64,000 bases of DNA from a virus. How positions within the stretch are numbered: position 1 is the stretch's first letter; each line of letters begins with the position of its first letter. The position numbers and the translations under genes are program-made. The DNA is taken from the IMG/VR virus record IMGVR_UViG_3300045988_080466; one strand, 5' to 3'. Shown in pieces: positions 4,801 to 50,003 of the stretch. The notes below the pieces were generated by a model that was given only the letters and a program-made list of their open reading frames with translations, was not told the DNA's origin and made no database searches.

Positions 4801-5238
4801 AGAAATTATGATAAGTATGTTGATTTAGTAAGAGGAATGGAAGGTTCTGATGCTTACGATACTATTAATAATAGTAAAGCATACGATGAACTTACATATA
4901 ATGATAAACTTGAAGAAGCCTTAGTACATGAATTTTCTCAATATTTTACCAGAGTATTGAAGGATTATAGAGGACGTGATTTAAAACTGGATGAAATAGA
5001 GTGGGACGGAATAATTAGTGATGTCTTAAATATTGATGTAAGTGAGTTCTACGATGATAACATATATACTTTAATGAAGAAAACTCTATCTGAAATACAT
5101 AGTAATTATGCAGTTCAGAAAACCTTGTTTAACAAGTCTAATGCTCAGAAAATGGTAAAACTTAGTAACATTAAATCTTCTTTAATGAAGAATCTAAGCT
5201 CTACTGATGGATATGGATTAATTGAAATTTGCGAATAA
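1855..5238 (+). CDS. large (1127 aa) protein with C-terminal zincin-like HExxH metallopeptidase motif
   Basis: Uninterrupted 3.4-kb ORF. TLLHELSHLF (HExxH, nt 4762-4776) is followed about 50 aa later by EEALVHEF, a possible third-ligand Glu. 8-nt overlap with the upstream ORF. Confidence 0.65.
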   Translation: MSNCIQFTIGDKIYKFRDVDLQRSATLDDIISAIAEDPNYASQLEDLNIDLSNRGIESISSTKEIPNDITDRNTYIAENLMGNLNHYALSQIYKRVGVPNSEFFTAFKDIMDRGKGNRLSFLVTNSPTQTFLGNSRDLVVINKNDLYNQPKLLGALSYVYSHSQLLDNQSAIYKIVEDAYSKILESPTGLREELLKIPDKYAALRRLLYYTQSDMYDTNPDIASLKMTIGNHLFAEVTRNIMRNKDREFFNNLKLNPVQYKALENLIVNEELPNTINFGDYSVSVSELNKFRLDYIEAERNPKDDTPEIDDDSLLLRLASLNPNGAFDANMLPANKEQRLMLLSNPIAAFVFDTANFNKVSKYVNKFEQEVDSAIAPEERAELIQNRLQNVYTSFGKGRLDVNGYILDLIQEASTNKLDFKNAEDIKGFNTMFYPNTRVNMDESLTSKPSRLLRFNHSQSLSKFSENAYKVVFNPKVKYVNVIGGSNSRIEINPDFNLEVTDDFQEKINALEEAATKINNSPTKRRTLSVKYDSKFDYSLEEGSANINKAINSFRSVIKYLQEAVDNNRTFYYLNTDGIGQFSQAMVVNADQLSITPVVFDELSQWVYSNVKSPDKAEWIRTFTSLMNAAEYTDSALFKFYDSQSFKERAFSSKRVDSSGKLWENLNARLTKLEEERGPLAQFDMLKEGVISMIPILPQGYNYALTRKEEGDIFKLKNEKDRDQFINVEVQRKIALTYRKAGGRNISSPSELMVGDVIRINPNDTYQAVVLENRPEGKFCAWFTSNQIHSAVLTNEDLKNVVRTQYTAENRQIGPDVKAFYTNVGVFRMADDAVDFKWVNNESSLPILHQIFADEITDISEATGFTEDFIKRNYLNTVKRFQVAMFMELTPTTEEITSTPNVETLSDNLSTPEFVEDLVSSLAKSGVQVTSYRKEELKEKFPQLDNVKAFIYDGEVIVNSDLMTDDTLLHELSHLFLADLKSRNYDKYVDLVRGMEGSDAYDTINNSKAYDELTYNDKLEEALVHEFSQYFTRVLKDYRGRDLKLDEIEWDGIISDVLNIDVSEFYDDNIYTLMKKTLSEIHSNYAVQKTLFNKSNAQKMVKLSNIKSSLMKNLSSTDGYGLIEICE

Positions 5239-5239
5239 A

Positions 5240-8200
5240 ATGGCGTGTAAATATACTTTAAAAATAAATAGTACTGGAAAGGTTCTTACATTTAACTCCG
5301 AAAAAGAACTTGACAACTACCTACTATCTAACTACACTGAATTTGAAGGTATGGTCGACCATACCTTTAGATTTAGTAAAGACTACATAACTATGTTAGA
5401 TACAGAACAGGTAAAATCTCAAGATAAACTAGATAAAGATAGGAAACTTGCCTATGAAAAAGCTAAAGCAAGAAATGCTAAAAATGACGATACAATAGTA
5501 GTCAGAGGGCAAGGTGAAATGACTGATGTCATTGAAAATGAGGAAACATATTCTGACGGATTTATATCAGTTCTGAAATTTTTATCACGTCAAAGAGGCA
5601 CCAATGCGCCTCTTATTAACGCTTTCAGTAGGGAAGGGTACAAGAGGAACACCCGTATAGATAGGTCTCAAGGAAAGCCTGAGGATGTCTCTCCAGAAGA
5701 GTGGCTAAAACAAATAGATTCTTCAATTGACCAAGACTTTGAATATTGGGATTATTTACAAGAAATCGGACGAGGATTCCACTTAGTAATGGATACAGTT
5801 ATAAATTCCAACTTTGACATATCTGCTGATATGGTTGACTCTGTTATTAGCAAGAAGTTTGAGAGAGACTTTTTAGGGGGAAAGAATTTAAGTACTCTAA
5901 ATGGTGTATCGACTGGAGCATTAATGGACTTTATAAAAGGAATTACGGCTCTAAAGAAAAACATAATCCTTAACAGTGGAAGAGGAAGGAAATTCAAAAA
6001 ATTCTACACAGAATATGTAGTAGACCACGATGGTGGACCTGATGCAAAACTTAGAGGTAAGATTGACTTACTTGCAGTATTTGAGGATAACGAAGGCAAT
6101 CAAAGCGTTGAAATATATGACTTGAAACTTGCTACTAAACCACAAGATAGATGGGATGCTGATAAGAAAAATACTATTCAATATCAGCTTGGTTTCTACA
6201 AAAGAATGTTACAAGCCAAAGGAATTGCAGCAAGAAATATATCTACTAAAATTATCCCAGTTCTCATTGAAGGGGATAAAATACTCCACAAGATTGATAA
6301 AGTATCAGTCGGAGAACCAGAAGTTTATCTTCCTAATATTGGACAAAAAGCTAATATTGACGAAATAATTAAAATACCTATTGGTATAGAAAATTTATCT
6401 AATCCATTAGAAAATACAGTGTCAGAAAGAATGAGTAAGTTCTTCCCAATGAGTAAAATCAATCCTACTGATATTGTAGACTTTGATATGTTATTTGCTT
6501 CTCAAGTACATATTGATAAAAATACTGGAGAGTACTGGTTTAGAGATGTTACTAAATCAACTAATGAAAAGGGAGAAATAAGAAGAGCTACTAAAGAAGA
6601 AGCGGAAGCTGCATTTGAGGACTATCTAGTAAGAAAACTAGAGCATGATAACGATGTAACTCTCGCTATTACTAACAATCTTAAATATAATCTTGATAAG
6701 GTAAATGGCTTTGGAGGAAAGAACTTTAATCCTACAAGGACAGGTTTACAGATTGTTCCAGCTAATACATACGAACCTAAGCTTGGATTGTTTGAAGCAA
6801 ACTTATCCAAATACAAAAATGAGCCAGGATGGAACATAATTAGTAATGATGCTCTTACTAATATGAATGTTATTCTTCTTATTAATGAGACAAGAAAAGA
6901 AATGGATTTAATTTCTATTGCTTCTCATGACCTTAATAGTACTATTAATCTAGGTAAGGGTAATAATATTTTTGGAAGGTTTAAATCTGATAGAGAAGTG
7001 GAACTCGATAAACAAGTAATTAAAGCCACAGTCGGCAATGTGGAACTTATGAAACTGCTTTCTATTGCCAATGCTTTTCAAGAAACCGATTTGGGTTCTT
7101 ATACTATCGGGGAAATGAAGGTAGTTAATATTGGCAAGAGTGAATATCTTTCTTCCTATTTAAATCAAGAAAAAATAAATCATGCCTTCAATACTTTATC
7201 TGAATTATCTGGACAAAGTAAAGGAAACACATTGAAGTTTACTGATGAGTTTGATATAGCATGGAGAACCTTTAATAATATCATGAACTATGGAACCTAT
7301 GAAAATAGAGATAGACTTGATAAAATTGCTAAAACGTTATCAATAGATGGAGATATTACATCATTTGATAAACAAGCGAAGATGGACATCCTTACAAGAA
7401 TGTTCAAGGAACTTCAAGCTAGATATTTCTCTACTAATGCATCTGCTGATATTTCTAATCCTATTGCATATTTATTTTTACAAGTATCTAATGCTTTGGC
7501 TAAATATGGAAACACTACCATTGATATCTATAATGAAGAACTTTGGGCAAAGAACTTTGGTAATCTGGCAGAGCAGTGGAAAAGGGGAGAATTATTTAAT
7601 GGTACTTACTTAAATACTATTGATACAATCCCAATTGTAAAATCAGTTGCTCATAGATTGGCAGAAACCAACAGAAATATCACTAATTTATATGGTAATT
7701 ATAAGAACAAAGATAGGGCTATAACCAATAAGTTCTATCAGGAATCTGGACAAGGTTTCGTAGGGAAGACCATTATCAATGATTCAACAATTCGTTTTAA
7801 AAGATTACTTGACCAATCTGATTCTGGAAAGAGAAAGTTTATGGTTAAGAATCCGTATGATATGTCTACTGATTTAAATCCAGCAGAAAGAAACTATTTA
7901 AAATATTGGCTAGAGGATTTAAATAATAGAAGATATCCAGGACAGGATAGAGCAGAAGTTGGAGAAAGATACTTTGAAATACCTTTATTAAGAGGTTCCT
8001 CATTTTCTAAAATAACTAATGGTAAGAATCCTCTAGTTACTTATAAAGAAGATGGTTCTTTAGAAATGGTAAATCCAAGAATGACTACGACAGCTCAAGA
8101 AGAATATTTATCTACAGATGCTCTAAAGAATCTTGTAGAGATGTATAACGTATTCGATATTTCTAATTCAGTAGGAGGAAGAGAAAGACTTCTTTCCGAT

Positions 8201-9865
8201 ACTAATGGTAAACCTGAACAAACATACGAAACTAACCTTGAACACATTAAGGATATGTATGTGTTCTCCGATATTAGAAAGAAGGAAATGGATACAGTTC
8301 TTCCTGCTATTAATGCAGCAATTATTTCTCTTCAATTTACACAGAGACTTTCTAACAAGGATGCCCAAGCAACTATCGACTTCTTGAATGATTATATTAA
8401 GTCAGCAGTATTCGATGAATCTCTTATTGATAAAGAAAGTAGGGGAACGTTTAGAACTTTAGGAATGTTGAAGTCAGTATCTACTAAATTTATTCTTGGT
8501 TTTAACTACTTATCAGGAGCTAAAGAAACTATCACCGGATTCTTCAATCTTTATGAAAGAGCAGTAGCTAATAGCTTACTTGATAAAGATAAGATAGGAC
8601 TAAAGGATATGACTTCCGCTTATACTACTGTTTGGGTCGATTCTGTAAGACAGATAAGTACGATTACTATCCTAGAACATTTAAATTGGCAATATAGAAT
8701 GGCTAACGTGGATATGAACGCATTAGTCGATAGAATGAACTATGAAAAGACTGATGGATTCAGATTTAATGACAGAATGTTCTGGGCTAATAGAGCTCCC
8801 GACTTCTTATCAAGAATGACAATCCTCATTGGCTATATGAAGAAACATGGCTGCTATGATGCACATGAATATAAGAACGGAGAGGTAACTTACAATTGGA
8901 AAAAAGATAAGAGATTTAGTCTTCTTGCGAATCCAAATGCTGATACTAATTCATCTGAATGGCAATATCAAAGGTCTTTATATAATGCAATGATGGAAAC
9001 TTTCTTTGAAGAAAATTATAAACTTCCAAATGCTGACGGAACTTCGAGATTCTTATCAAGAGAAAAGGATTCAAGGGGAGTTTATAAAGAAGCTCTTCCT
9101 CAAGCATATACTACTCTTGAAGCTAATATGATAAAGCAAGAATCTGACAGCATATTCGGATATATGGACCACGATACTAAGTCTTTATATCTAAAGAAAG
9201 GAATGTTTATATTCCTTCACCAATTCCAGACTTTCTTGTCAGCAAAGAAAAATCAATACTTCCTAAAAAGAGGCACTTACGACCAAGGTCATTGGGTTCA
9301 GGTAACTGATGATGCAGGAAATAAGCTTTATTGGGATACTGTTCAAGACAACGAAGGTAACACCATTAGAGTTAAAACTACAGAAAATACTGGAGACCCA
9401 ATTGTGGATTGGCAAGGTAAAATTATGGAAGGAATTGCATGGTCACTAAGAGACTTATTTAACTTTACTAAGCCAGAGAGAATGAAAGATGCTTGGAGAG
9501 ACCCTGTAAAAAGAAGAAATCTCCTATTAGCTTTAGAAGATGGGGCTATTATAGGAATTATTTATCTAATGCTTGCTTTATTATTTGGAGATAAAGATGC
9601 AAAAGCTATGTCAAACACTGAACAAGCTATCGCAAGAATAGCAAGAAATGTAGGCGGAGAATTTAATATGTTTGCAATCTTTAATGGGGCTGTAGACTTT
9701 AAGATGCCTATGTATCAATTCTATAGTGGATTGTTCGAAGATGGAGTTAAAGTAGCATCCGGTGATATGCATGTATTAAGATTCTTTACTGATAATACTG
9801 GAGCATTCAGACCTCTTAAACCAACTGTTATAGATAACTTTAAAGCACCTAACGCTAACGAGTAA
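5240..9865 (+). CDS. giant (about 1540 aa) virion-type protein with RecB/Cas4-like PD-(D/E)XK motif set and C-terminal hydrophobic segment
   Basis: 4.6-kb ORF. The ORF track starts at TTG 5222, but ATG 5240 follows the upstream TAA directly. Motifs GKIDLL ... EIYDLK ... QYQLGFY (D / DxK / QxxxY). LLLALEDGAIIGIIYLMLALLFG lies near the C-terminus. Confidence 0.65.
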   Translation: MACKYTLKINSTGKVLTFNSEKELDNYLLSNYTEFEGMVDHTFRFSKDYITMLDTEQVKSQDKLDKDRKLAYEKAKARNAKNDDTIVVRGQGEMTDVIENEETYSDGFISVLKFLSRQRGTNAPLINAFSREGYKRNTRIDRSQGKPEDVSPEEWLKQIDSSIDQDFEYWDYLQEIGRGFHLVMDTVINSNFDISADMVDSVISKKFERDFLGGKNLSTLNGVSTGALMDFIKGITALKKNIILNSGRGRKFKKFYTEYVVDHDGGPDAKLRGKIDLLAVFEDNEGNQSVEIYDLKLATKPQDRWDADKKNTIQYQLGFYKRMLQAKGIAARNISTKIIPVLIEGDKILHKIDKVSVGEPEVYLPNIGQKANIDEIIKIPIGIENLSNPLENTVSERMSKFFPMSKINPTDIVDFDMLFASQVHIDKNTGEYWFRDVTKSTNEKGEIRRATKEEAEAAFEDYLVRKLEHDNDVTLAITNNLKYNLDKVNGFGGKNFNPTRTGLQIVPANTYEPKLGLFEANLSKYKNEPGWNIISNDALTNMNVILLINETRKEMDLISIASHDLNSTINLGKGNNIFGRFKSDREVELDKQVIKATVGNVELMKLLSIANAFQETDLGSYTIGEMKVVNIGKSEYLSSYLNQEKINHAFNTLSELSGQSKGNTLKFTDEFDIAWRTFNNIMNYGTYENRDRLDKIAKTLSIDGDITSFDKQAKMDILTRMFKELQARYFSTNASADISNPIAYLFLQVSNALAKYGNTTIDIYNEELWAKNFGNLAEQWKRGELFNGTYLNTIDTIPIVKSVAHRLAETNRNITNLYGNYKNKDRAITNKFYQESGQGFVGKTIINDSTIRFKRLLDQSDSGKRKFMVKNPYDMSTDLNPAERNYLKYWLEDLNNRRYPGQDRAEVGERYFEIPLLRGSSFSKITNGKNPLVTYKEDGSLEMVNPRMTTTAQEEYLSTDALKNLVEMYNVFDISNSVGGRERLLSDTNGKPEQTYETNLEHIKDMYVFSDIRKKEMDTVLPAINAAIISLQFTQRLSNKDAQATIDFLNDYIKSAVFDESLIDKESRGTFRTLGMLKSVSTKFILGFNYLSGAKETITGFFNLYERAVANSLLDKDKIGLKDMTSAYTTVWVDSVRQISTITILEHLNWQYRMANVDMNALVDRMNYEKTDGFRFNDRMFWANRAPDFLSRMTILIGYMKKHGCYDAHEYKNGEVTYNWKKDKRFSLLANPNADTNSSEWQYQRSLYNAMMETFFEENYKLPNADGTSRFLSREKDSRGVYKEALPQAYTTLEANMIKQESDSIFGYMDHDTKSLYLKKGMFIFLHQFQTFLSAKKNQYFLKRGTYDQGHWVQVTDDAGNKLYWDTVQDNEGNTIRVKTTENTGDPIVDWQGKIMEGIAWSLRDLFNFTKPERMKDAWRDPVKRRNLLLALEDGAIIGIIYLMLALLFGDKDAKAMSNTEQAIARIARNVGGEFNMFAIFNGAVDFKMPMYQFYSGLFEDGVKVASGDMHVLRFFTDNTGAFRPLKPTVIDNFKAPNANE

Positions 9866-36867: not shown

Positions 36868-36898
36868 TAAAAAAGAGCGGTTCTACACGAACCACTCT
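36868..36898 (-). terminator. rho-independent terminator after nrdD-nrdG
   Basis: Minus-strand RNA AGAGUGGUUC-GUGUA-GAACCGCUCU: a 10-bp stem with one G-U pair, followed by UUUUUU. The stem includes the nrdG stop codon. Confidence 0.65.
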
Positions 36899-37380
36899 CT
36901 CCAAAATAAATTAGTAATATCTTCTAATACATAAAGACCTGCTTCTTCATATGTTTTATTAACTTTATACATTTTCTGATTGGTGTTAGGATTATCAAGT
37001 GGGCCTAATTCCTCAATATACGGTCCTAACTTAATAAAATCATACTCCCCCAGTCTTCTTTCTAAACCAAGCGGTAATTGTTCTCTTCCAGAATACCATG
37101 CTGTTTTGAGAGAAGGATAAAGAGCTCTTATATGCTTGCATAGGTAATAAATGTCCATAGGATTGGAATCTCCTCCCATAAAAGCCACACAGGTTATTCC
37201 TTCATTCTTGTTAATCAGACAATCTAGTTCGCTGTGAGTCAATTCCTTACCAATATCCTCTGCCAAGTAAGAACTATGACAGCCCTTACAATGACATGGA
37301 CAATTAGAAATGTTTATACAGAGAGTTACCTCAAGAGGAATCTCTCGTAGTGTTACTGCTGTGTCTGTATATTTAAGCAT
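36883..37380 (-). CDS. nrdG: anaerobic ribonucleotide reductase activating protein (radical SAM)
   Basis: NCPCHCKGCHS cluster motif. 165 aa, with an 8-nt overlap with nrdD. Confidence 0.85.
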   Translation of the reverse strand: MLKYTDTAVTLREIPLEVTLCINISNCPCHCKGCHSSYLAEDIGKELTHSELDCLINKNEGITCVAFMGGDSNPMDIYYLCKHIRALYPSLKTAWYSGREQLPLGLERRLGEYDFIKLGPYIEELGPLDNPNTNQKMYKVNKTYEEAGLYVLEDITNLFWREWFV

Positions 37381-39583
37381 TTGTATATCCTAATTTAGAA
37401 TTGTCTACTGTGTAAGTAAGAGAATTGTACACTCTATGTGTTTGCTCTTCTTGTCTGCCTGCTGACCAATTCTTTATCTTAGTAAGATAACCAATGATTC
37501 TGTCATACATATCTATGTGAGTGCTTCCACACTTAGGACAAGTAGTAACAGGAACCTTAGTAATGAACCCACAATCTTGACATTCAGAGTTTGGAACATT
37601 AAATGTTAGATAACTACATCCAACAGTGGCAGCATAGTTGAGTAACAGACTTGCCTGATTCTTAGTAGGATGTTCGGATAGATTAATATGAGCTGCACTA
37701 CCTCCGTCTAACCAATCACCAACATATTCACTTCCATGAAGTTTGATTTTCTCCAAGATTGAACTGTTAGATTCTGGTAAAAATACATAAGAAGTATATA
37801 AGTTTCTTTCTTTAGGAACCCAATACCCATCAGCTTTATCCCAGTTGTAATTCTTCACAGCTAAAGATTCAGCAGGAACCAGTTCAGTGTTGAACATAGT
37901 TTTCTTAGTATTATGGAGTTGATTTTGCTCTTTGATAGTTCCGAAAATAAGATTACAGAACTCTTTGTACTCATCATTGTCACTACATTCAATTCCCAAG
38001 AACATTGCAGCTTCATTCAATCCATTTAAGCCAATGGTTAAATACTGATTATTCAGGTTGATAAATCCAGCTTCATATACAGGCAACAAATGTGCATTAT
38101 ATAAGTCCCAAAGTAGCTCATTGTAAGCTGTATGATACTTATAGACTCTGTCTAAAATATTGGTTAGATACTCTTTTACCTCTGGATAGCAATGCTTGCT
38201 GAGTTGTGTTCCCGGAATAGGACATTCATCTTTAGTTTCTCTTATAAAATTCTGAATAATTCTATTCAGGTTAAGAGTAATTACAGATTTAGAACCAGTT
38301 TGTTCTCCAACCAATCCATTAGTAAATGTAAATTCATTAGATTGGAGTTTATTCTTTAATCGGCAGCAACTTGATAAAGAGTCCACACTATCACTTATAT
38401 AAGTAAAGAATGAATGTCCTTCTGCATACTCTTCTGAAACAAATTGTTCCCATTCCTTATCTTGAAACTCTCCGTCCTTATAAAGAAGAGATACTGTTTC
38501 TACTGGGAATGTGAGCATACAACGAAGTCTCTCTTGATTAAACCACTTCATAAATTTCTTTTGAAGCCAGTTAAGAGAATTCCATTTTGGAGTATCTCCA
38601 TCAGGGAATACAAAATGTCCATACATTCCTTCAAAGTAAGGTTTATCAAAATAACTTACATTCCAGAAAGCTGATTGAAAACCTCTTGCTGCTGCCGGCT
38701 GATTCACAGAATATACGATTTGTTGGAAGTACTGTTCTATTTGCTTACCGATAGTACCTTCGTCAATCTTATTTCCATTTTCGTCTTCGTGCCACCTACG
38801 CTTAGCGTTATCACCATCAGCATATTTAAAATAATAATCACCCCATTTCTTACGAGCAAAGTGGTCAAACATTACTAAGAAACTTGCAGTTGCAACAGCT
38901 CCCGCAAATTGGGAAGATACAGCAAATATCATATTTACAAACATTCCACAAAATGAATCAAGGTTCTTTGGAGATGCAGATAAACCACCAATTCCCTTAA
39001 TTCCGCCTTGCAGGAATGGATAACAGGATAAAGCTACACAATATGGGAATCCAAATGTAGAATTTTCATCATGTTTATAGATGATATGGCTCTTTAAATC
39101 TCTTTCATACTGTTTGTAGTCGAAATCAGGATATAGTACTTGAAGTTTCTCCTTTACTCTATACCTATTAAGGTCTATATTATTACTTTTATATAGCTCA
39201 TTGTTAAGTACCGCAATATTCTTATTGGCAACATTTGAGTTATCATCAACTTCTGAGCCTTCCGCTGCATTAGAAGCCTTCATAAATTCTTTTATAAATT
39301 CTTCTCTTTCTCTCACATTCTCACGAACACGAGCTCTGTTTTCTCTATATAAGATATAAGCTTTAGCAACATCAGGGAAATCAAAGTCCATAAGAATCTC
39401 CTCTATCTGGTCTTGTATGTCCTCAATCGTTATTTCATCCCATACTTCAATAGAATCTAAAATATCCTCGACAGTATCTTCTTGTGGTGTGTATCCGCAA
39501 GCACTAAATGCTTTCAGGACTGCAATTTTGATTTTTGAGGCATTGAAAGCCTCGCTTGTTCCGTCTCTTTTTATTACGTTCAT
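37373..39583 (-). CDS. nrdD: anaerobic (class III) ribonucleoside-triphosphate reductase
   Basis: N-terminal ATP-cone (VIKRDGTSEAFNASKI). C-terminal Cys4 site (CQDCGF...CPKCGS) and glycyl-radical motif RIIGYLT. Confidence 0.9.
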   Translation of the reverse strand: MNVIKRDGTSEAFNASKIKIAVLKAFSACGYTPQEDTVEDILDSIEVWDEITIEDIQDQIEEILMDFDFPDVAKAYILYRENRARVRENVREREEFIKEFMKASNAAEGSEVDDNSNVANKNIAVLNNELYKSNNIDLNRYRVKEKLQVLYPDFDYKQYERDLKSHIIYKHDENSTFGFPYCVALSCYPFLQGGIKGIGGLSASPKNLDSFCGMFVNMIFAVSSQFAGAVATASFLVMFDHFARKKWGDYYFKYADGDNAKRRWHEDENGNKIDEGTIGKQIEQYFQQIVYSVNQPAAARGFQSAFWNVSYFDKPYFEGMYGHFVFPDGDTPKWNSLNWLQKKFMKWFNQERLRCMLTFPVETVSLLYKDGEFQDKEWEQFVSEEYAEGHSFFTYISDSVDSLSSCCRLKNKLQSNEFTFTNGLVGEQTGSKSVITLNLNRIIQNFIRETKDECPIPGTQLSKHCYPEVKEYLTNILDRVYKYHTAYNELLWDLYNAHLLPVYEAGFINLNNQYLTIGLNGLNEAAMFLGIECSDNDEYKEFCNLIFGTIKEQNQLHNTKKTMFNTELVPAESLAVKNYNWDKADGYWVPKERNLYTSYVFLPESNSSILEKIKLHGSEYVGDWLDGGSAAHINLSEHPTKNQASLLLNYAATVGCSYLTFNVPNSECQDCGFITKVPVTTCPKCGSTHIDMYDRIIGYLTKIKNWSAGRQEEQTHRVYNSLTYTVDNSKLGYTNA

Positions 39584-43573: not shown

Positions 43574-43936
43574 TTAAAAGGGTAAATATTCGTGAAGTAT
43601 CTTTCCAATCTGTGTCGCCATTTCAGCCGGAGTTTTAATTCCGAATGTGGGGAACTCTGTACAGCCATACATAAAGTCCTCACACATAATAGCTAGCCCC
43701 TTTATAAACTTCTCTGGAAGGGGGTCTTTGGCAGTAATCTGCATTAGTATTTTATAAGGAGTGATATCTGGTCTCTGCTGTTTGGCTTTCATAGTCAAAT
43801 GGCAAGTCAGAGCAATCACCGCAAATTTATTACTGACGTCAACATTCAGGTAGCCGAGCGAGAAGTTGTCGGCATAAAGCTGTTTCATTTCATCATACGT
43901 CATATCGTAATATTCCATTAAATAGGTGTCTCCCAT
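43574..43936 (-). CDS. hypothetical protein
   Basis: Co-directional 120-aa ORF. Confidence 0.5.
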   Translation of the reverse strand: MGDTYLMEYYDMTYDEMKQLYADNFSLGYLNVDVSNKFAVIALTCHLTMKAKQQRPDITPYKILMQITAKDPLPEKFIKGLAIMCEDFMYGCTEFPTFGIKTPAEMATQIGKILHEYLPF

Positions 43937-44952
43937 GGATTTACAGTATAAAATGCAACCATTCGCAATAGCTTTACAAACTCTGCGAATCCTCTTATTA
44001 GTTCTTTCTTACTGACTTTATATACTCCAGCAAAATAATTGGGAACAGTAGATACCAATAGCATGTTTGCTTTCATGTCGGGCTCTTTAAGCCCGTATAT
44101 ATGTTCAGCAGCTAGCATTAGTAACCAACCATACATACCCATTTGCCGATAATAATGATATTGTTCCCAACTTTCATTAAATCGAGTCAAATAATGACCA
44201 GTAGTTTTTAAGTCATTTAATGTGATAAGGTTCTCATCTGGACAAATAGTATAATTATCCAGTTTAGCTTTTAGCTTTAATATGAAAGGCTCGTGGTCTG
44301 GAACTGTCACTTCGACGTCCAGTATAACGGCTTGTTCATTTAAAGACAATGGTGGAGTCATTATAAATTGAGGATTTAATAGAGACTGTATCTCCTTATT
44401 CCTATTTACTGACTGCAAACAAAGCTGTAATTTCTCCCTTGATTTGGAATCCAGATAGATTGGAACCTTGGATGTATTATTTCCAAATTCATATTTCTTT
44501 CTGTCAATCCAATATTCTGTGCACTTATTACGTATGGATAAGATTTTCTTATCGTCCATTTTACCCTTGTAATAATCTATCTTGTCAGAAGCGGCTATAA
44601 TATCTTCATCAGATACTTCACCTTTTATTAAAAAGACAGAATATAGTTCATCTGCCATGAATCCAGCTTTTGCTGTTGGTCTATCGACCGAGTCCACTAA
44701 AGTAAATTCATTTGGCTGTAAAACTAACTCATGCACTGCAGAACCAAATACTAACGAATCGGAGTAAGCGGTTTTCAATCCTTCAAAATACTGCTCTGGA
44801 GACCCTCCTTGCTCAGGGTTTATATATTTAAGTCTCGAGTTACTGATATAATCTCTATATCCATTCCCAAAATACTCTTCATCAGTAATGTCAAGTACCT
44901 TGAGTGTTTCTACTAGGGGATTGAGCTTGATGTCATTCAAGCTCATAGGCAT
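43918..44952 (-). CDS. PD-(D/E)XK (RecB/Cas4-like) nuclease
   Basis: GSAVHELV, KAKLDNY ... LNDLKTTG (D ... DxK) and YYRQMGMY (QxxxY). Confidence 0.55.
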   Translation of the reverse strand: MPMSLNDIKLNPLVETLKVLDITDEEYFGNGYRDYISNSRLKYINPEQGGSPEQYFEGLKTAYSDSLVFGSAVHELVLQPNEFTLVDSVDRPTAKAGFMADELYSVFLIKGEVSDEDIIAASDKIDYYKGKMDDKKILSIRNKCTEYWIDRKKYEFGNNTSKVPIYLDSKSREKLQLCLQSVNRNKEIQSLLNPQFIMTPPLSLNEQAVILDVEVTVPDHEPFILKLKAKLDNYTICPDENLITLNDLKTTGHYLTRFNESWEQYHYYRQMGMYGWLLMLAAEHIYGLKEPDMKANMLLVSTVPNYFAGVYKVSKKELIRGFAEFVKLLRMVAFYTVNPWETPI

Positions 44953-45190
44953 GTAATTCTAATTTAAATGTTGCACTCGGAGTATCTAAATCATCAGCTG
45001 ATTCATATACACTCATTGTCCCATTCTCATAGTCCATATCAATACAATATGCTTTGTCTCCCGCTTTATATTTACCAACGTCCTTGATAAATACACAATT
45101 CATAAAAGTTATAAAAAGAGTATCGCATAAATCCCAACTTCCCCAAGTGAATAATTGTTTTTCCATTAACCGTAGGTTTTCATAAAGCAA
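44933..45190 (-). CDS. hypothetical protein
   Basis: Co-directional 85-aa ORF. Confidence 0.45.
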   Translation of the reverse strand: MLYENLRLMEKQLFTWGSWDLCDTLFITFMNCVFIKDVGKYKAGDKAYCIDMDYENGTMSVYESADDLDTPSATFKLELHAYELE

Positions 45191-45675
45191 TAGGCATCCA
45201 TAATTTCGTCCTTACAAAGAGAGAAAACCTTATACATAGGAAAATCTGAAGTTCTTTCTGTATGATATACCAATGCAGGTAAGCCTGAATTGTGACATTT
45301 CAATACATTGCTGACTGAATCATCAATAAATACATCGACCTTACCTTTAATCATATCAGCTTTATTGCCGTGCTGATAGACCATTTGATAGATAGGAGCT
45401 TTCGGGAATCCGTTCATCTCCAGCCACTTCTTAGTCCATTCCTTATTGTTTACTCTTTTTGTGCAATACAGAGCTGGCTGGAAATCTGGCATATTAATAA
45501 CCTTCAGACCAAGCCAAAAATCTCTGTCTTTAGATAATACCTGCTGCACGTTTTTAGTAATTATACTATCTTCGAGCATACGTGGATTGTTTTTTGTATC
45601 AAAATACTCACAATATGCTCCCCAAAAGTCGGCTAGACAATCGTCTATGTCTAATCCAATTCTAAATCTCTTCAT
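45166..45675 (-). CDS. HAD-family 5'(3')-deoxyribonucleotidase-like protein
   Basis: IGLDIDDCLADFW (DxDxx...DF, as in the NT5C family) and VFIDDS. Confidence 0.6.
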   Translation of the reverse strand: MKRFRIGLDIDDCLADFWGAYCEYFDTKNNPRMLEDSIITKNVQQVLSKDRDFWLGLKVINMPDFQPALYCTKRVNNKEWTKKWLEMNGFPKAPIYQMVYQHGNKADMIKGKVDVFIDDSVSNVLKCHNSGLPALVYHTERTSDFPMYKVFSLCKDEIMDAYCFMKTYG

Positions 45676-45693
45676 TTAATAAAATTTTATTCT

Positions 45694-45906
45694 TTATAAA
45701 GCGTCTATATCAATGACATCACCTACTTGGGCATTTGCGGCTTCGATGATGTCAACAAACTCACTCCAATCCCCAGGATAGTCTAAATCCCAGAGATTTA
45801 CATAAGTTTCAATGATTTTATCCTTAGCTTCTTGAAGGCTTCTGGCTGTAATTTTCTCAACCCAGACGCTATCACTGGTGCTAAAAGGAACTACGTATGT
45901 GTTCAT
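45694..45906 (-). CDS. hypothetical protein
   Basis: Co-directional 70-aa ORF. Confidence 0.45.
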   Translation of the reverse strand: MNTYVVPFSTSDSVWVEKITARSLQEAKDKIIETYVNLWDLDYPGDWSEFVDIIEAANAQVGDVIDIDAL

Positions 45907-46709
45907 TCACAAACTTCGTCAAAGTTTTCAACAATGTCAATCATCTCATTATCGAGAACATCCCAGACTTGGTCGAATATGGTTTGTGGCATCTTTTCGT
46001 AATAGGCATAAGCAATACTGCCGGCCATAGCTGCAATAGTATCACTATCTCCACCCATAGAAATAGCTAGTTTTAAACAATCCTCGTAGTCTTTAGACTC
46101 AAGAAATGCAAGTAAAGCAATAGGAACACTGCCTTGACAAGTAGAATCGAAATGATATTCTGGACGAATCTCATCCAAAGTCTTAGATGCATACTCTGGA
46201 TAATATTTATTGAGAATGTCTCTCACAGAATTTTTAGTCCGAAGTTTCTGTTTCATTACGTATATTGCCAATGCAATAGCTTGAGCACCTTTCACTCCCT
46301 CTGGGTCATTATGAGAACACAGAGCAGAGTTCTTAGCGAGTTCAAGACACTCCTCAGCACTTTTAGCTGCATAGCCACAAGGACTTACACGCATTGCCGA
46401 ACCATTACCATAGCTTCCATAAGGAACAGGATTATCAATCCATTTACGGAACATTCCACCATATCCTCTGTTGGGATATTTCTTACACATTTCTTGGATG
46501 CACTCTCCAAATTGCTCTGGAGTAGGATTTCCGTACTTTAGAATAGCATTTGCTACTCCAATAGTACATACAGTATCGTCTGTAAAACCATTACCTGTTC
46601 TTACTAAACGAACCACTTCATACAGTTTAGTTCTTCCGAACTTTGCTTCATAGGAGGAACCGCAGACATCACCTGCAATTGCTCCAAATAGTACATAGTC
46701 TATTATCAT
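45903..46709 (-). CDS. ADP-ribosylglycohydrolase (ARH/DraG family)
   Basis: GAIAGDVCGS, FTDDTV, GNGSAMRVSP, GGDSDTIAAMAGSIA: the family's metal-binding motifs in order. Confidence 0.8.
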   Translation of the reverse strand: MIIDYVLFGAIAGDVCGSSYEAKFGRTKLYEVVRLVRTGNGFTDDTVCTIGVANAILKYGNPTPEQFGECIQEMCKKYPNRGYGGMFRKWIDNPVPYGSYGNGSAMRVSPCGYAAKSAEECLELAKNSALCSHNDPEGVKGAQAIALAIYVMKQKLRTKNSVRDILNKYYPEYASKTLDEIRPEYHFDSTCQGSVPIALLAFLESKDYEDCLKLAISMGGDSDTIAAMAGSIAYAYYEKMPQTIFDQVWDVLDNEMIDIVENFDEVCE

Positions 46710-47011
46710 TGGTAGCTGACTGAGTTTTTAATAGTTATTTCTTCGTTGTAAAAGTTGAATCCTTCAGGGGTTCCAAAATCTGTTAATGTAAAAGAGCTAT
46801 CCGTTGCTCCTTCAAAAATTTCATCGTCCATGTCCTTGTTAAACACTTTAACAATTATTCCTTTAAAGCTCTTGAGTGATGGTTCTACTGCAAGAACAAC
46901 ATAATCATAACCATGACTTGCATATCTAAGAAGGCATGGATACGGGAGTGTTTCAGATGTCATAGGAGATGTAATTTTTACACCCTCTATTTTTGGAGTC
47001 GATTTAATCAT
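46706..47011 (-). CDS. hypothetical protein
   Basis: 101-aa ORF with 4-nt overlaps to both the radical SAM gene and the ARH gene. Confidence 0.5.
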   Translation of the reverse strand: MIKSTPKIEGVKITSPMTSETLPYPCLLRYASHGYDYVVLAVEPSLKSFKGIIVKVFNKDMDDEIFEGATDSSFTLTDFGTPEGFNFYNEEITIKNSVSYQ

Positions 47012-47928
47012 AATTCAATTATTTTAATTGGATTTAAGTTAAATGAACTTGGGGTTATTTGTACTTTATCTTTTGTAAGAATCACGTTCTTACTTAAAGA
47101 TTCGGGTGGATAAAGATAAGTAGGAATCTTAGAAGTTTCCAGATACTTAGAGAAATGGGCTCCGAAAGCAATGTTTTCCATACCTTCTGTGAGTACTTTC
47201 TCTTCAAGATACTCGAATACTCCCTCATCAATTCCACTATCACTACGTCCAGAAGGCATCAACGGCAACAGAACATGATATTTTACATCACTTCCATAGC
47301 GTTTCCATTCATTAACAAAATAGTCAACGGATTCCTTGTTGGAAATAATATGGTGAATATTTACATTTGTGTCACCCATCGTAATGAGATTGCAAATAGC
47401 CATATCAGCATATTTACGCAACTCTCTATTTCCTAAACTTACAGCAACTCCGCCTACGAAGTTACGAGTATATTCAAGCAACTCTCGATTAGTAGCTTTA
47501 GACAATGTAATGCCATTAGTAGTATAATTAGGAACTACTCCTGTATTATACACTGTCTCTAAGAACTTACAGAAGTCTGGATGAATAGTAGGCTCACCAG
47601 TAGAACCGATAGCAATTTGAAATGGCTTATCGGTAATAGTAACGTGATTTGCCTTTTCTTCTTTATAAAGACTCATCCACTTTACCCATGTTTCGCATAT
47701 ATCAGGATAGTTAATTCCTTTATGTGAAGCACTTACGTAACAGAATGGACATTCTGCATTACAAAGAGTGTTAATACCCACATCGTAGAACTCTGCTTTA
47801 TCAGCCGGAAGTTCTTTTGCAACTCCTTCACCAAGTCTAATAGTCTTTAAATTTGGAGACCAAATTGCATTATAATTGTAGTCTGGAAACACTCTTCTTT
47901 TTAAACCCCAATGGTTAAAATCTTTCAT
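47008..47928 (-). CDS. radical SAM enzyme (function unknown)
   Basis: NTLCNAECPFCY (CxxxCxxC) and the GSTGEPT SAM-binding-type motif. No C-terminal Cys cluster. Confidence 0.75.
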   Translation of the reverse strand: MKDFNHWGLKRRVFPDYNYNAIWSPNLKTIRLGEGVAKELPADKAEFYDVGINTLCNAECPFCYVSASHKGINYPDICETWVKWMSLYKEEKANHVTITDKPFQIAIGSTGEPTIHPDFCKFLETVYNTGVVPNYTTNGITLSKATNRELLEYTRNFVGGVAVSLGNRELRKYADMAICNLITMGDTNVNIHHIISNKESVDYFVNEWKRYGSDVKYHVLLPLMPSGRSDSGIDEGVFEYLEEKVLTEGMENIAFGAHFSKYLETSKIPTYLYPPESLSKNVILTKDKVQITPSSFNLNPIKIIEL

Positions 47929-47945
47929 CTTTTAATTGTTTTTTT

Positions 47946-48470
47946 TTAGTTTCTTTCGTTTTCTGGAAGTTCTTTCCATTCAGAATAAGATACAACTTCT
48001 ATCACTCTTTTGGTTTCTGGGTCAATGCGACAATAACTGTCACAAGTTACCACTTCAAGGTTATTAAGTAACCAATTGATTGTGGCTCTTCTGCTGTGGT
48101 CTATATCAACCCACACGAATTTTTCCAACTCTTCAAGAGATTCTTTAAATTGTAAAGAGAAGACTTCCTTGGTGAATAAATCCCGCTTGTTTTCAGGTAT
48201 ATATTCATTCTTATCTTCGTTGTAATAATCATCAAAAGTCTTTATCTCCAATTCCCCGCCCATACCGGATGAAGAATCGTACTTGGCTCTTTCTTCGTCA
48301 GATAGTTTCTCCCACTCATCCCAATCGCCATCAAAATAGTTCTTGTTTGCAACTTGCTCAATTAGATTTACTAAATCATTGACTGGAGTAGTTGCCTTAA
48401 CTACGAATACCTCTGAACTAGAGTTCGTAATAATGTCTGAAACAGACTGTAATTTAATTCCTAATCGCAT
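47946..48470 (-). CDS. ITNSSSE-motif family protein, paralogue 4 (174 aa)
   Basis: N-terminus MRLGIKLQSVSDIITNSSSEVFVV is shared with three upstream ORFs. Acidic, divergent remainder. Confidence 0.6.
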   Translation of the reverse strand: MRLGIKLQSVSDIITNSSSEVFVVKATTPVNDLVNLIEQVANKNYFDGDWDEWEKLSDEERAKYDSSSGMGGELEIKTFDDYYNEDKNEYIPENKRDLFTKEVFSLQFKESLEELEKFVWVDIDHSRRATINWLLNNLEVVTCDSYCRIDPETKRVIEVVSYSEWKELPENERN

Positions 48471-48802
48471 CTTTCTACTGTATAATTTTCTTCTCCGAAC
48501 TTATCTTTGAGAATAGCCTTAACTCCTACTTCAAAGAATGTATCACATTCTATTCCATAAGGAAGACTTAATTCACAGACAAATCCTTCAAATCCTTCTT
48601 CATTCTCATGATAATATTCAGTCTCGTCACTAATAACAGGACTTAGTTCCCAGTCATGAGAAGGGAAAAGGTCCTTTAGCGCGTTATATATTTCATCATG
48701 CAGGACTTTGTCCTTAGTATCTACTCTAAGAAATGTTTCAGAACTTGAATTTGTAATGAGGTCGGAAATTGATTGAATTTTAAGTGTAATTTTTAATTTC
48801 AT
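48461..48802 (-). CDS. ITNSSSE-motif family protein, paralogue 3 (113 aa)
   Basis: N-terminus MKLKITLKIQSISDLITNSSSETFL. Confidence 0.6.
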   Translation of the reverse strand: MKLKITLKIQSISDLITNSSSETFLRVDTKDKVLHDEIYNALKDLFPSHDWELSPVISDETEYYHENEEGFEGFVCELSLPYGIECDTFFEVGVKAILKDKFGEENYTVERCD

Positions 48803-48969
48803 ACTCTAATCTTTTTGAATTTACCACATTTTTTACATAAAAAAGTGATTTCTACCCAAGTGGGACATTTATCAGTCCCGCTCCAGTATAATTCACTCTG
48901 TTTTACTTGTTCCCATTCGTGGCAGCATAGGAATTTCTTTTTAAACGCTTCTACTAAGTCTTTAAACAT
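48799..48969 (-). CDS. small Cys-rich (zinc-ribbon-like) protein
   Basis: FLCCHEW ... CKKCGKF. Start moved to ATG 48969, just after the upstream TGA. Confidence 0.45.
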   Translation of the reverse strand: MFKDLVEAFKKKFLCCHEWEQVKQSELYWSGTDKCPTWVEITFLCKKCGKFKKIRV

Positions 48970-48970
48970 A

Positions 48971-49510
48971 TCAATAACGATAGTCAGCACTGTATAGAGT
49001 ATCTAAAGAGTTCAGAGCTTTGGCAGCCATTTCAGCGTCCTCATTGTCTAATCCGTCCTTAACTCTAATGTTCAATTCTTCAAGAGCTGGGAAAGAGTCC
49101 CAGGCACCGTCATTTTGTTCTATACAGTATTCTTCGTATGTCTGTGCTCCATTTTCAATTGCAACTCTTTTTACTTCATCAAAAATATATTCAAGTGCTT
49201 TAGACTTACTTTCACTCCAATCTCCTGCATCCCAGCCGTCAGAGTAAATTTTTTCAAGAGATTTAGCATAATCATTATCCCCGTCCTTGATATAATTTTT
49301 GATGTAGTCATAGTATGCGTCCTCCCATCTATCATCGAACTTAGTGTCGAATACAAATAGGTCAGAGAACATAAGAGTACTTCCTACCGATGCAAGTAAA
49401 GAATCCACAATATTCCTGATAATACATTCTGCATTGTCATTCAATACTGTAAATGTTTCAGTGGAACTGTTAGTAATTAAATCTGTAATAGATTGAATTT
49501 TGATTTTCAT
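48971..49510 (-). CDS. ITNSSSE-motif family protein, paralogue 2 (179 aa)
   Basis: N-terminus MKIKIQSITDLITNSSTETFTV. Acidic, Trp/Tyr-rich remainder. Confidence 0.6.
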   Translation of the reverse strand: MKIKIQSITDLITNSSTETFTVLNDNAECIIRNIVDSLLASVGSTLMFSDLFVFDTKFDDRWEDAYYDYIKNYIKDGDNDYAKSLEKIYSDGWDAGDWSESKSKALEYIFDEVKRVAIENGAQTYEEYCIEQNDGAWDSFPALEELNIRVKDGLDNEDAEMAAKALNSLDTLYSADYRY

Positions 49511-49511
49511 T

Positions 49512-49844
49512 TTATCCTAAATGATAACGGTTAATATTTGAATAATCTAGACTTTCTATAAACTCCATTACCCATCCCGGTATGCTGTTATCTGTTACTG
49601 ACTCGATGACTAAGTCTCCTCTTTTTATTTTAATGTGTCTGTAAAAATCATAGGTCATATCATTTGATGCTACCCAAGTTTTGTATAATTCGCTCGGAAC
49701 TAATCCGGCAGCGGTTACTACTTTATCAATCAATTCTTCTATTTCCTGATTTTTACTTTTTTGATTGTGAACTACAAACAACTCACTCGAGCTATTTGTT
49801 ATCACATCTGATATTGACTGCGTCCTCAAGATTACTATCATCAT
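49512..49844 (-). CDS. ITNSSSE-motif family protein, paralogue 1 (110 aa)
   Basis: N-terminus MMIVILRTQSISDVITNSSSELFVV. Confidence 0.6.
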   Translation of the reverse strand: MMIVILRTQSISDVITNSSSELFVVHNQKSKNQEIEELIDKVVTAAGLVPSELYKTWVASNDMTYDFYRHIKIKRGDLVIESVTDNSIPGWVMEFIESLDYSNINRYHLG

Positions 49845-49968
49845 CTAAAAGTGTTTGTAAGTTATTAATTTCTCTTTGGTGATAGTCTATTTCGTCCTCT
49901 AAATCCATAATTATAAGATTATGTTCAAGGATTTGGCTCTCTATCACTTCTCTCTGTTCATTTGTCAT
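49792..49968 (-). CDS. small coiled-coil-like protein (58 aa, below ORF-track cutoff)
   Basis: Hand-translated MTNEQREVIESQILEHNLIIMDLEDEIDYHQREINNLQTLLDDDSNLEDAVNIRCDNK. Overlaps paralogue 1 by 53 nt. Confidence 0.3.
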   Translation of the reverse strand: MTNEQREVIESQILEHNLIIMDLEDEIDYHQREINNLQTLLDDDSNLEDAVNIRCDNK

Positions 49969-49971
49969 AAC

Positions 49972-50003
49972 AATAAAAAAGGCGACTATTGTTTAGTCGC
50001 CTT
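49972..50003 (-). terminator. rho-independent terminator
   Basis: Perfect 10-bp inverted repeat AAGGCGACTA / TAGTCGCCTT (49979-50003) with a 5-nt loop, followed on the minus strand by TTTTTATT. The stem contains the last codons and stop of the upstream gene. Confidence 0.7.

Follow-up and report, generated by a model that had tools for sequence, protein, structure and literature searches.

A phage module of a SPASM-less radical SAM enzyme and an array of small acidic proteins that share an N-terminal box

The 64,000-nucleotide stretch analyzed here (hereafter the window) belongs to IMG/VR record IMGVR_UViG_3300045988_080466, which comes from an uncultured phage of about 180 kb, and it carries on its minus strand a block of small genes surrounding a radical S-adenosylmethionine (SAM) enzyme, here called rSAM. 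The functional unit within this block is a two-component phage module, made of an rSAM without a SPASM domain and a variable array of small acidic “box proteins.” The module is defined by an N-terminal D-h-[IV]-[TS]-N-S-S-[ST]-x-h-[FY] box, found within about the first 20–30 residues of these proteins, and by an adjacent, co-oriented rSAM of this clade; in the window, four box genes lie 17–1916 nt upstream of the rSAM start. This module is widely conserved, undescribed, and in kind probably a radical SAM maturase with motif-bearing clients, which also has an immunity-associated cellular relative. An original prediction, made from the letters of the window, had suggested that nine consecutive genes, including one for an ADP-ribosylglycohydrolase (ARH), may form one functional system with a de-ADP-ribosylating component. 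The part of this idea that survives is that the rSAM works with the adjacent paralogues; the nine-gene cassette does not.

Three rSAM-anchored searches, for which alignments of representative homologues served as queries, drew loci from IMG/VR and from genome assemblies. They yielded 80 close viral loci (rSAM identity to the window enzyme 54–100%), 80 distant viral loci (about 30–50%, on contigs of 7–508 kb), and eight family members from genome assemblies, mostly metagenome-assembled genomes (about 34–65%). In scans with hidden Markov models (HMMs), 159 of the 160 viral loci had one to seven same-strand box genes at most 2.5 kb away, and in 145 of the 160 a box gene stood within 300 nt of the rSAM gene, upstream in 137 cases and downstream in 8. 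When the enzymes were clustered at 60% identity, the pair was present in 35 of 37 clusters, the two exceptions being a truncated contig and a locus with its box gene 7 kb off. The distant loci mostly lack flanking synteny to the window, and all-against-all clustering of their neighbor families left only two that are widely common, the rSAM itself (80/80) and the box proteins (79/80). The reverse test started from 48 loci fetched via a box protein: the rSAM was present in 38. Of the ten without it, three sit on contigs that bear the pair at another place, three are truncated at a contig end, and four fit neither case. Conservation of gene order in relatives, the check that the original prediction had set for itself, thus holds for the rSAM and box genes and not for all nine. 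The box family and this rSAM clade are a co-inherited pair across phages and cells, and in a profile scan of the whole window, box genes number exactly four and the rSAM family has a single member. The next commonest neighbor family in the distant loci (19/80), and the sole other recurrent rSAM neighbor there, is an open reading frame (ORF) of about 268 residues (GSHLYGT...SDxD) that adjoins the rSAM gene, for example at L120 10842–11819, and is nucleotidyltransferase-like by eye.

What the box proteins have in common is confined to their N-terminus. The box consensus reads h-h-h-x-[QH]-S-x-x-D-h-I-T-N-S-S-[ST]-E-h-[FY], and the four paralogues of the window share nothing beyond an N-terminal MxxxIxIQSxSDxITNSSSExF. 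Among 445 unique box proteins, which are unalignable elsewhere, T, N, S, and S are 100% conserved, as is [FY](+7); S(-6) and D(-3) reach 96%, [ST](+4) 94%, and E(+5) 85%, the last being replaced by T or V in many members. There is no glycine in the box, whose T has a median position of residue 17. Since the box-coding DNA is only 64–75% identical between paralogues, conservation acts at the protein level. The proteins are 100–290 residues long (median 150) and acidic, with a median isoelectric point (pI) of 4.5 and a pI below 5 in 85% of cases, versus 24% of background ORFs. At 90% identity the family comprises at least 2,716 clusters; none is named or has a Pfam domain, and they are covered by no Pfam, NCBIfam, PHROG, or PADLOC model; when the nine block proteins were scanned with Pfam, PHROGs, NCBIfam, and PADLOC, only a generic radical SAM match and an ARH match were obtained. 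The literature was searched for the box motif and for phage systems of an rSAM with paralogues, without a relevant result.

Beyond the box, the sequences fall into divergent sub-types. Box protein 1 closes with the motif I-x-I-x-G-x-x-DN-x-IP...FIE...R[YF]HLG, which ends at a C-terminal Gly (window 49512–49600), and because this motif (DNxIP...RYHLG) is common to members from very distant phages, its sub-type may be the ancestral client. The sub-family of box protein 4 is marked by SSGMGG and IDIDWxRxATINW. In the AlphaFold2 model of the latter protein (mean pLDDT 88, above 90 for most residues), the sole low-confidence part is the box itself, residues 11–26, with pLDDT 42–52 and drawn as a protruding hairpin. 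This fold has no match with E <1 in the PDB, and in BFVD it matches a single uncharacterized viral protein of 82 residues (E 4e-4, TMq 0.30). The box-gene array varies in copy number at the level of strains: genomes that are 96–99% identical differ in whether they have a 378–384-nt segment with a whole additional paralogue. The segment lies upstream of the box protein 3 gene, at what is the junction with the Zn-ribbon gene in the window (about 48795–48802) and at about 8745–9128 in loci L001 and L009; the fifth paralogue that it encodes has 127 residues, starts with MKFLTKIQSISDIITNSSSETF, and is absent from the window and from L003.

Several meanings of the motif were tried and dropped. An N-glycosylation sequon found no glycosyltransferase conserved nearby; pyruvoyl formation or Asn-Ser self-cleavage would leave the rSAM unexplained; and a flavodoxin-like, PurE-like, or SGNH-like phosphate loop had no fold support. 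A capsid-targeting or protease site fell because E is not invariant and the pair is also found in cells. This last idea belongs to a broader explanation, in which the box directs proteins to the capsid and is removed by proteolysis, or binds a host factor, and stands beside the rSAM gene for co-regulation only. The T4 internal proteins IPI–III are targeted to the capsid with proteolytic removal, and variable acidic cargo that bears a conserved tag at its N-terminus is reminiscent of them, just as S-S-E in this clade resembles the S/A/G-x-E cleavage sites of the phiKZ type. It is the invariant T-N-S-S, however, and not the E with its 85% conservation, that marks the box; the same rSAM clade is paired with it in bacteria and archaea, which have no capsid, and the adjacency outlasts complete loss of the surrounding synteny, all of which makes a role independent of the rSAM very improbable.

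The partner is a radical SAM enzyme by its cluster motif C56-x3-C60-x2-C63 (CNAECPFC), its GGE-type motif (GSTGEP), and its fold; it also has a TTNG motif. Its match to PF04055 (E 5e-6) is just below the gathering score, and its AlphaFold2 model (pLDDT 94.7) matches radical SAM structures at probability 1.0. The reading of CNAECPFC without SPASM cysteines was correct: across 34 family members the cluster triad holds the only invariant cysteines, and therefore neither a SPASM nor a twitch cluster is present in the family of the window enzyme. Conserved motifs include CxxxCxxCY, PFQVAIGGxGEP, PNYTTNG, GGVAVS, VLLPxxxxGR, and AFGA, together with an N-terminal unit (NY...GKTxR) that forms three beta strands in the model. 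The best fold matches, with TM-scores of about 0.5–0.6, are SuiB, SkfB, DesII, BlsE, EpeE, and PqqE, and SuiB, SkfB, EpeE, and PqqE among them are peptide-modifying enzymes. Members are about 275–320 residues long; the family has 872 representatives at E <1e-3 in a library at 50% identity, and at least 857 clusters at 90%. Matches to curated families are all partial and far under their cut-offs. The enzyme is no viperin or pVip, since NF038283 scores 28.5 against a cut-off of 180 bits over residues 54–153 only and the PADLOC pVip match is partial. Nor is it NrdG or another activase of glycyl-radical enzymes (GREs): no activase model is among its 22 NCBIfam matches, and there is no Gly in the box. 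Some homologues carry inteins of the Hint plus LAGLIDADG kind, inserted near the GGE motif, and others are split into two ORFs by intron- or homing-endonuclease-like insertions of 0.15–1.3 kb, which suggests a strongly conserved rSAM gene.

The pair also exists in cells. The closest cellular relatives of the phage rSAM, which came from a genome scan, are rSAM/SPASM proteins of bacteria and archaea, about 65 in number and about 345 residues long; their HMM matches phage enzymes with E values as low as 1e-51. These cellular proteins have SPASM (PF13186, TIGR04085) and come from Agrobacterium, Rhizobium, Paracoccus, Roseovarius, Acidobacteriota, Verrucomicrobiota, Desulfobacterota, Chloroflexota, and Asgard archaea. 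In 58 of the 65 loci, the rSAM/SPASM gene ends a conserved four-gene string. The first gene encodes a protein of about 888 residues with SMEK_N and a NACHT/STAND NTPase region, of which the NACHT region matches Avs2 models; the second, a protein of about 125 residues; the third, a protein of about 134 residues with the N-terminus MKIKxDFVSNSSSTSF; and the fourth, the enzyme. The third product has the same N-terminal box, in the form D-h-[VI]-[ST]-N-S-S-[ST]-x-x-F, and when the cellular and phage box families are compared by hhalign only the box aligns (1% probability), with no further detectable similarity. A PDB sequence search with the cellular box family gave no match, its 532 clusters are all “hypothetical,” and the small proteins of the string have no PADLOC, NCBIfam, or Pfam model. 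Neither the 160 phage loci nor the window has a SMEK/NACHT NTPase gene, and the phage loci also lack the protein of about 125 residues. In Agrobacterium tumefaciens ATCC 4720 the string occupies L214 4460–8912, and it recurs across L179–L243; it is found on large plasmids in A. tumefaciens, and beside IS66 and tra genes in Methylomonas.

Deposited phages hold little of this. The window has no nucleotide match in 50,697 deposited phage records (megablast); by megablast and tblastn, neither the locus nor the box proteins have a relative there, and the window rSAM returned relatives of SPASM type alone, at 28% identity. In a set of about 50,700 deposited phage genomes the module has no member save a distant SPASM-type pair in the cultured jumbo Vibrio phage D479 (OZ195776.1), where a 132-residue box protein is encoded 1.4 kb upstream of a SPASM-type relative of the rSAM; it starts with MKIRNGFVSNSSSSSF and its N-terminus matches phrog_7397. 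SPASM-type enzymes about 28% identical to that of the window also occur in 173 deposited T4-type phages, namely Pseudotevenvirus and related Klebsiella, Enterobacter, and Cronobacter phages of the RB43, KP15, and phi5 types. The assembly collection lists the exact rSAM protein of the window in 515 blocks, whose contigs measure 98–281 kb, and one relative with 70% identity originates from a human gut metagenome.

What does the enzyme do with these proteins? We infer that the box is what the rSAM recognizes, because it is the sole feature common to the clients, because unrelated scaffolds that bear it are found with the same enzyme clade, because it is exposed and flexible in the predicted structure, and because the nearest structural and sequence neighbors of the enzyme modify peptides. 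On balance, our analysis leans toward covalent modification of the T-N-S-S-[ST] stretch by the rSAM, in preference to a docking or adaptor role. The box would then be a flexible hairpin jutting from an otherwise well-folded, lineage-variable domain, docked by the enzyme possibly via strand pairing with its own N-terminal beta unit. The 5′-deoxyadenosyl radical would be used to install a post-translational modification in T-N-S-S-[ST], and a single maturase would serve many paralogous clients, as anSME does with sulfatases or an activase with glycyl-radical proteins. As for the chemistry, epimerization, cross-linking initiated by hydrogen abstraction, or a novel reaction would all be compatible with the lack of auxiliary clusters. 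The clients themselves are probably early host-takeover or counter-defense proteins: acidity, position in the early region, strain-level change in copy number, and an immune-type NTPase beside the cellular pair together suggest a counter-defense role.

Known maturases give this picture its terms of comparison. As with anSME/AtsB, one rSAM maturase would act on many folded, paralogous clients that carry a short invariant Ser-containing motif near the N-terminus, and the modification would create function. The motif of anSME/AtsB is C/S-x-P/A-x-R, however, and its SPASM domain has two auxiliary clusters, whereas the window pair has an ITNSS box (S-x-x-D-h-I-T-N-S-S-[ST]), no SPASM, and clients that are small, acidic, without a PDB fold match, and not sulfatases; it is therefore no anSME-sulfatase pair. 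The GRE activases PflA and NrdG, which work with GREs or GrcA, are likewise small single-cluster rSAMs that act on a flexible loop of a folded protein, and one activase may serve several clients; the same phage even encodes NrdD/NrdG (window 36883–39583, downstream of the block; 736 and 165 residues, respectively), and hence a second, unrelated radical SAM enzyme. Unlike their targets, the box has neither Gly nor an RVxG motif, and the NCBIfam matches are far below cut-off.

A different use of the same pair would make the box an unmodified docking peptide, through which the variable domains bring varied substrates (host proteins, nucleic acids, nucleotides) to the rSAM, much as F-box proteins serve one ligase core. 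The co-conservation of rSAM and box fits this adaptor model equally; an invariant box on hypervariable domains with fast paralogue turnover fits target diversification, and a small molecule or nucleotide as substrate would agree with the missing auxiliary clusters. Yet a docking motif rarely needs four consecutive residues that are 100% invariant over hundreds of lineages, cells included; moreover, the low-confidence hairpin that protrudes from the predicted structure resembles a loop entering an active site, and the nearest fold matches are peptide-modifying enzymes. We hold the adaptor model to be unlikely, but more likely than the other alternatives to modification of the box.

The same fold matches also recall the maturases of peptides made on the ribosome and then modified post-translationally (RiPPs). 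SuiB/StrB, SkfB, PqqE, and EpeE/YydG are the best fold matches, their substrate genes lie directly upstream, and several precursors per enzyme are possible, just as several proteins with a conserved N-terminus precede one rSAM here. The box proteins might in that case be precursors that have an N-terminal leader and release a modified peptide with a toxin or signal function; rSAM/SPASM peptide systems joined to NTPase conflict systems offer a precedent (PMC7159879). The window module differs in having no SPASM or twitch cysteines and no detected RRE, protease, or exporter. Its “precursors” are proteins of 100–290 residues, confidently folded in prediction, in which the conserved part is the box, that is, the putative target itself, without a leader ahead of a conserved core. 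The neighborhood has no conserved peptidase, transporter, or RRE, no third conserved family accompanies the pair, no RRE appears in the Pfam scan, and conserved Cys or Trp partners for known cross-links are missing. A RiPP-like system thus seems improbable.

Other observations weigh against modification of the box. Sequence alone cannot tell a substrate from a docking site. The rSAM is without the auxiliary clusters used by most known cross-linking rSAMs and by anSMEs, which argues against a mechanism of the anSME or sactisynthase type; an RRE domain was not detected in the Pfam scan, and Foldseek TM-scores of about 0.6 mostly mirror the common radical SAM barrel. Box genes without an rSAM within 10 kb occur at L248, L250, L266, and L269, and the SPASM-type rSAMs of RB43 and phi5 have no box gene within 4–9 kb. 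As for the counter-defense role, acidity and location in the early region are circumstantial.

Among analogues studied by experiment, the KpAvs2 operon comes closest; in it, Avap1 (a radical SAM protein) and Avap2 (a small DUF6375 protein) accompany the Avs2 NTPase (PMC11564622). Avap1 is needed for defense against some phages, viperin-type nucleotides are not made, and no NTP-sized pocket is predicted (PMC11564622). The likeness lies in an rSAM and a small protein with a STAND NTPase, the NACHT region of the cellular relatives' NTPase matching Avs2 models; the difference is that the window has no NTPase. The module is no Avs2-Avap1-Avap2 operon, with no SMEK/NACHT in the window or the 160 phage loci and no DUF6375 match in the cellular strings. 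Compared through the DUF6375 model only, the Avap2 family gave no HMMER match with the cellular box proteins or with their neighbor of about 125 residues. A further parallel is the FxSxx-COOH system of vWA-MoxR / AP-ATPase type (Haft and Basu, 2011; PMC7159879), for which Kaur et al. (2020) described rSAM-SPASM enzymes with FxSxx-COOH peptides in NTPase conflict systems (PMC7159879). It likewise joins a short Ser-containing motif, borne by a small protein that diverges fast, to a dedicated rSAM and is coupled to an NTPase of STAND type; the FxSxx-COOH motif, in contrast, is C-terminal and released by a metallopeptidase, the system is actinobacterial, and its enzyme has SPASM.

A wider picture can be drawn from these parallels, tentatively and with fairly low confidence. 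The pair of box protein and rSAM would be an ancient, pan-domain protein-modification module placed on both sides of the phage-host conflict. In bacteria and archaea, a SMEK-NACHT (Avs2-like) immune NTPase would be coupled to an enzyme of the rSAM/SPASM type and a single box protein, while large phages would combine a SPASM-less enzyme with expanding box arrays, as rSAM-matured counter-defense effectors or as decoys of the host pathway. Modification of T-N-S-S-[ST] would then be a new radical SAM protein chemistry.

The other genes of the block have a different history. ARH is present in 17 of the 80 close loci (missing from 63) and in none of the 80 distant ones; the 101-residue ORF in 20 close loci, 8 of them without ARH, and in no distant one; and the Zn-ribbon ORF in 12 close loci, all of the closest clade, and again in no distant one. 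The interval from the rSAM gene to a gene for a 70-residue protein (window 45903–47011; the same slot in L009–L088) is a hot spot of insertion, occupied in one of six ways: the 101-residue ORF plus ARH, another ORF of about 90 residues plus ARH, ARH alone, the 101-residue ORF alone, an unrelated 141-residue ORF, or nothing. Where ARH occurs, the gene before it is in most cases an unrelated ORF of about 90–100 residues that overlaps it by 4 nt. Its nearest relatives (38–46% identity) are in 48–58-kb Porphyromonas/Bacteroides phages, in 460–735-kb megaphages, and in an unrelated 176-kb fecal phage; no rSAM or box gene lies within 6 kb of the homologue in MT835469, and none is annotated within 3 kb in a Porphyromonas phage. 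Being patchy in close loci, absent from distant ones, lodged in a variable slot, and stand-alone in its relatives, ARH is an accessory gene independent of the pair, at a site prone to insertion and outside the system, and the supposed de-ADP-ribosylating component goes with it. The protein itself looks catalytically intact: it is a full-length member of PF03747 (117.9 bits versus a cut-off of 26.2, residues 7–237, E 9e-34), and its metal-site motifs GDxxG (GDVCG13), TDDT43, and GGDSDT219 are all in place. This it shares with DraG, ARH3, and Tri1, differing in that it misses the equivalog cut-offs (50 versus 337 bits for DraG, 36 versus 490 bits for Tri1) and in that its gene is unlinked to the rSAM module.

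The cassette of nine genes, with ARH, the 101-residue ORF, and the Zn-ribbon gene as parts and de-ADP-ribosylation as one of its steps, must be judged on this evidence. It drew on genes that are co-directional, tightly packed, and joined by 4-nt overlaps, and ARH does adjoin the rSAM gene in several sub-lineages, at 61–100% rSAM identity. The overlaps at the rSAM/101-residue and 101-residue/ARH junctions are indeed there, and a third follows between ARH and the gene for the 70-residue protein. They run on, however, into clearly unrelated downstream genes, the slot has six contents, one of them empty, and the ARH homologues of other phages are not beside an rSAM or box gene in the two contexts inspected. 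Because the genes are not co-conserved, which the original prediction had itself named as grounds for refutation, the cassette is unsupported; it is largely refuted and retains hardly any probability. ARH, the 101-residue ORF, and the Zn-ribbon gene are lineage-specific, unrelated passengers in or beside the locus.

The block lies between a primase-like gene and a DnaB helicase gene on one side and NrdD/NrdG, PolA, and ligase genes on the other, in the replication and early-gene region. The proposed terminator ahead of it was borne out by a hairpin followed by a T-run, at 50003–49979 of the minus strand, and so were the nine tightly packed minus-strand ORFs, which the ORF list of the window places after that hairpin (Table 1). 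The proposed 3′ limit at 45903 is arbitrary, since ARH overlaps the next gene and the tight packing goes on downstream through at least four further genes, to 43918. As to the claim that no promoter or terminator is recognizable inside the block, matches to sigma-70-like promoters are at chance level (29 observed versus 31 +/- 5.7 expected), and 13 consecutive gene starts (window 43900–50000) have A/T-rich upstream regions and no Shine-Dalgarno-like sequence, so that for a probable Bacteroidota phage its promoter part is uninformative. These same two features, together with the ARH relatives in Porphyromonas and Bacteroides phages, suggest Bacteroidota as the host. Elsewhere in the window, three very large plus-strand ORFs (575, 1127, and 1547 residues) occupy 135–9865, and they are followed at about 10 kb by a strand switch and a change of sign in GC skew.

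Table 1. Features of the block in the window, and related genes in other loci.
Feature	Position	Strand	Remarks
Intrinsic-terminator-like hairpin	49979..50003	-	10-pair stem, 5 G-C pairs, T-run; ends upstream gene; 5′ boundary of block
Acidic ORF, 58 aa, pI 4.05	49792..49968	-	close clade only; outside core module; 53-nt overlap with box protein 1 gene
Box protein 1, 110 aa	49512..49844	-	box ITNSSS at 49785–49802
Box protein 2, 179 aa, pI 4.1	48971..49510	-	box at 49460–49477
Zn-ribbon-like Cys/His-rich ORF, 63 aa	48799..48990	-	between box proteins 2 and 3
Box protein 3, 113 aa	48461..48802	-	box at 48740–48757
Box protein 4, 174 aa, pI 4.4	47946..48470	-	box at 48414–48431
Radical SAM enzyme (rSAM), 306 aa	47008..47928	-	CxxxCxxC; core partner of box proteins
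ORF, 101 aa	46706..47011	-	no family match; hypervariable slot
ADP-ribosylglycohydrolase (ARH), 268 aa	45903..46709	-	PF03747; same variable slot
Acidic ORF, 70 aa	45694..45906	-	4-nt overlap with ARH; conserved downstream flank of variable slot
Vibrio phage D479 pair	L169 2143–2541 and 3902–5107		box protein and SPASM-type rSAM
SPASM-type rSAM, Enterobacter phage phi5	L170 3824–4975
SPASM-type rSAM, RB43	L295 9007–10029
Intein-bearing or split rSAM homologues	P0274, P0290, P0315, P0328; L255, L275, L285, L286, L289, L291, L173

The rSAM/box module is thus abundant yet unannotated, and it offers a concrete, testable enzyme-substrate hypothesis for a radical SAM family of unassigned chemistry, with Vibrio phage D479 as a possible experimental model for the pair. 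For annotation, it corrects the tempting reading of ARH as part of the system. The copy number of the box array differs between strains of a common gut phage, and the locus may therefore be one of an arms race. Finally, the module is linked to an uncharacterized STAND-NTPase operon of bacteria such as Agrobacterium tumefaciens, and may shed light on why some Avs-type systems require a radical SAM accessory protein.

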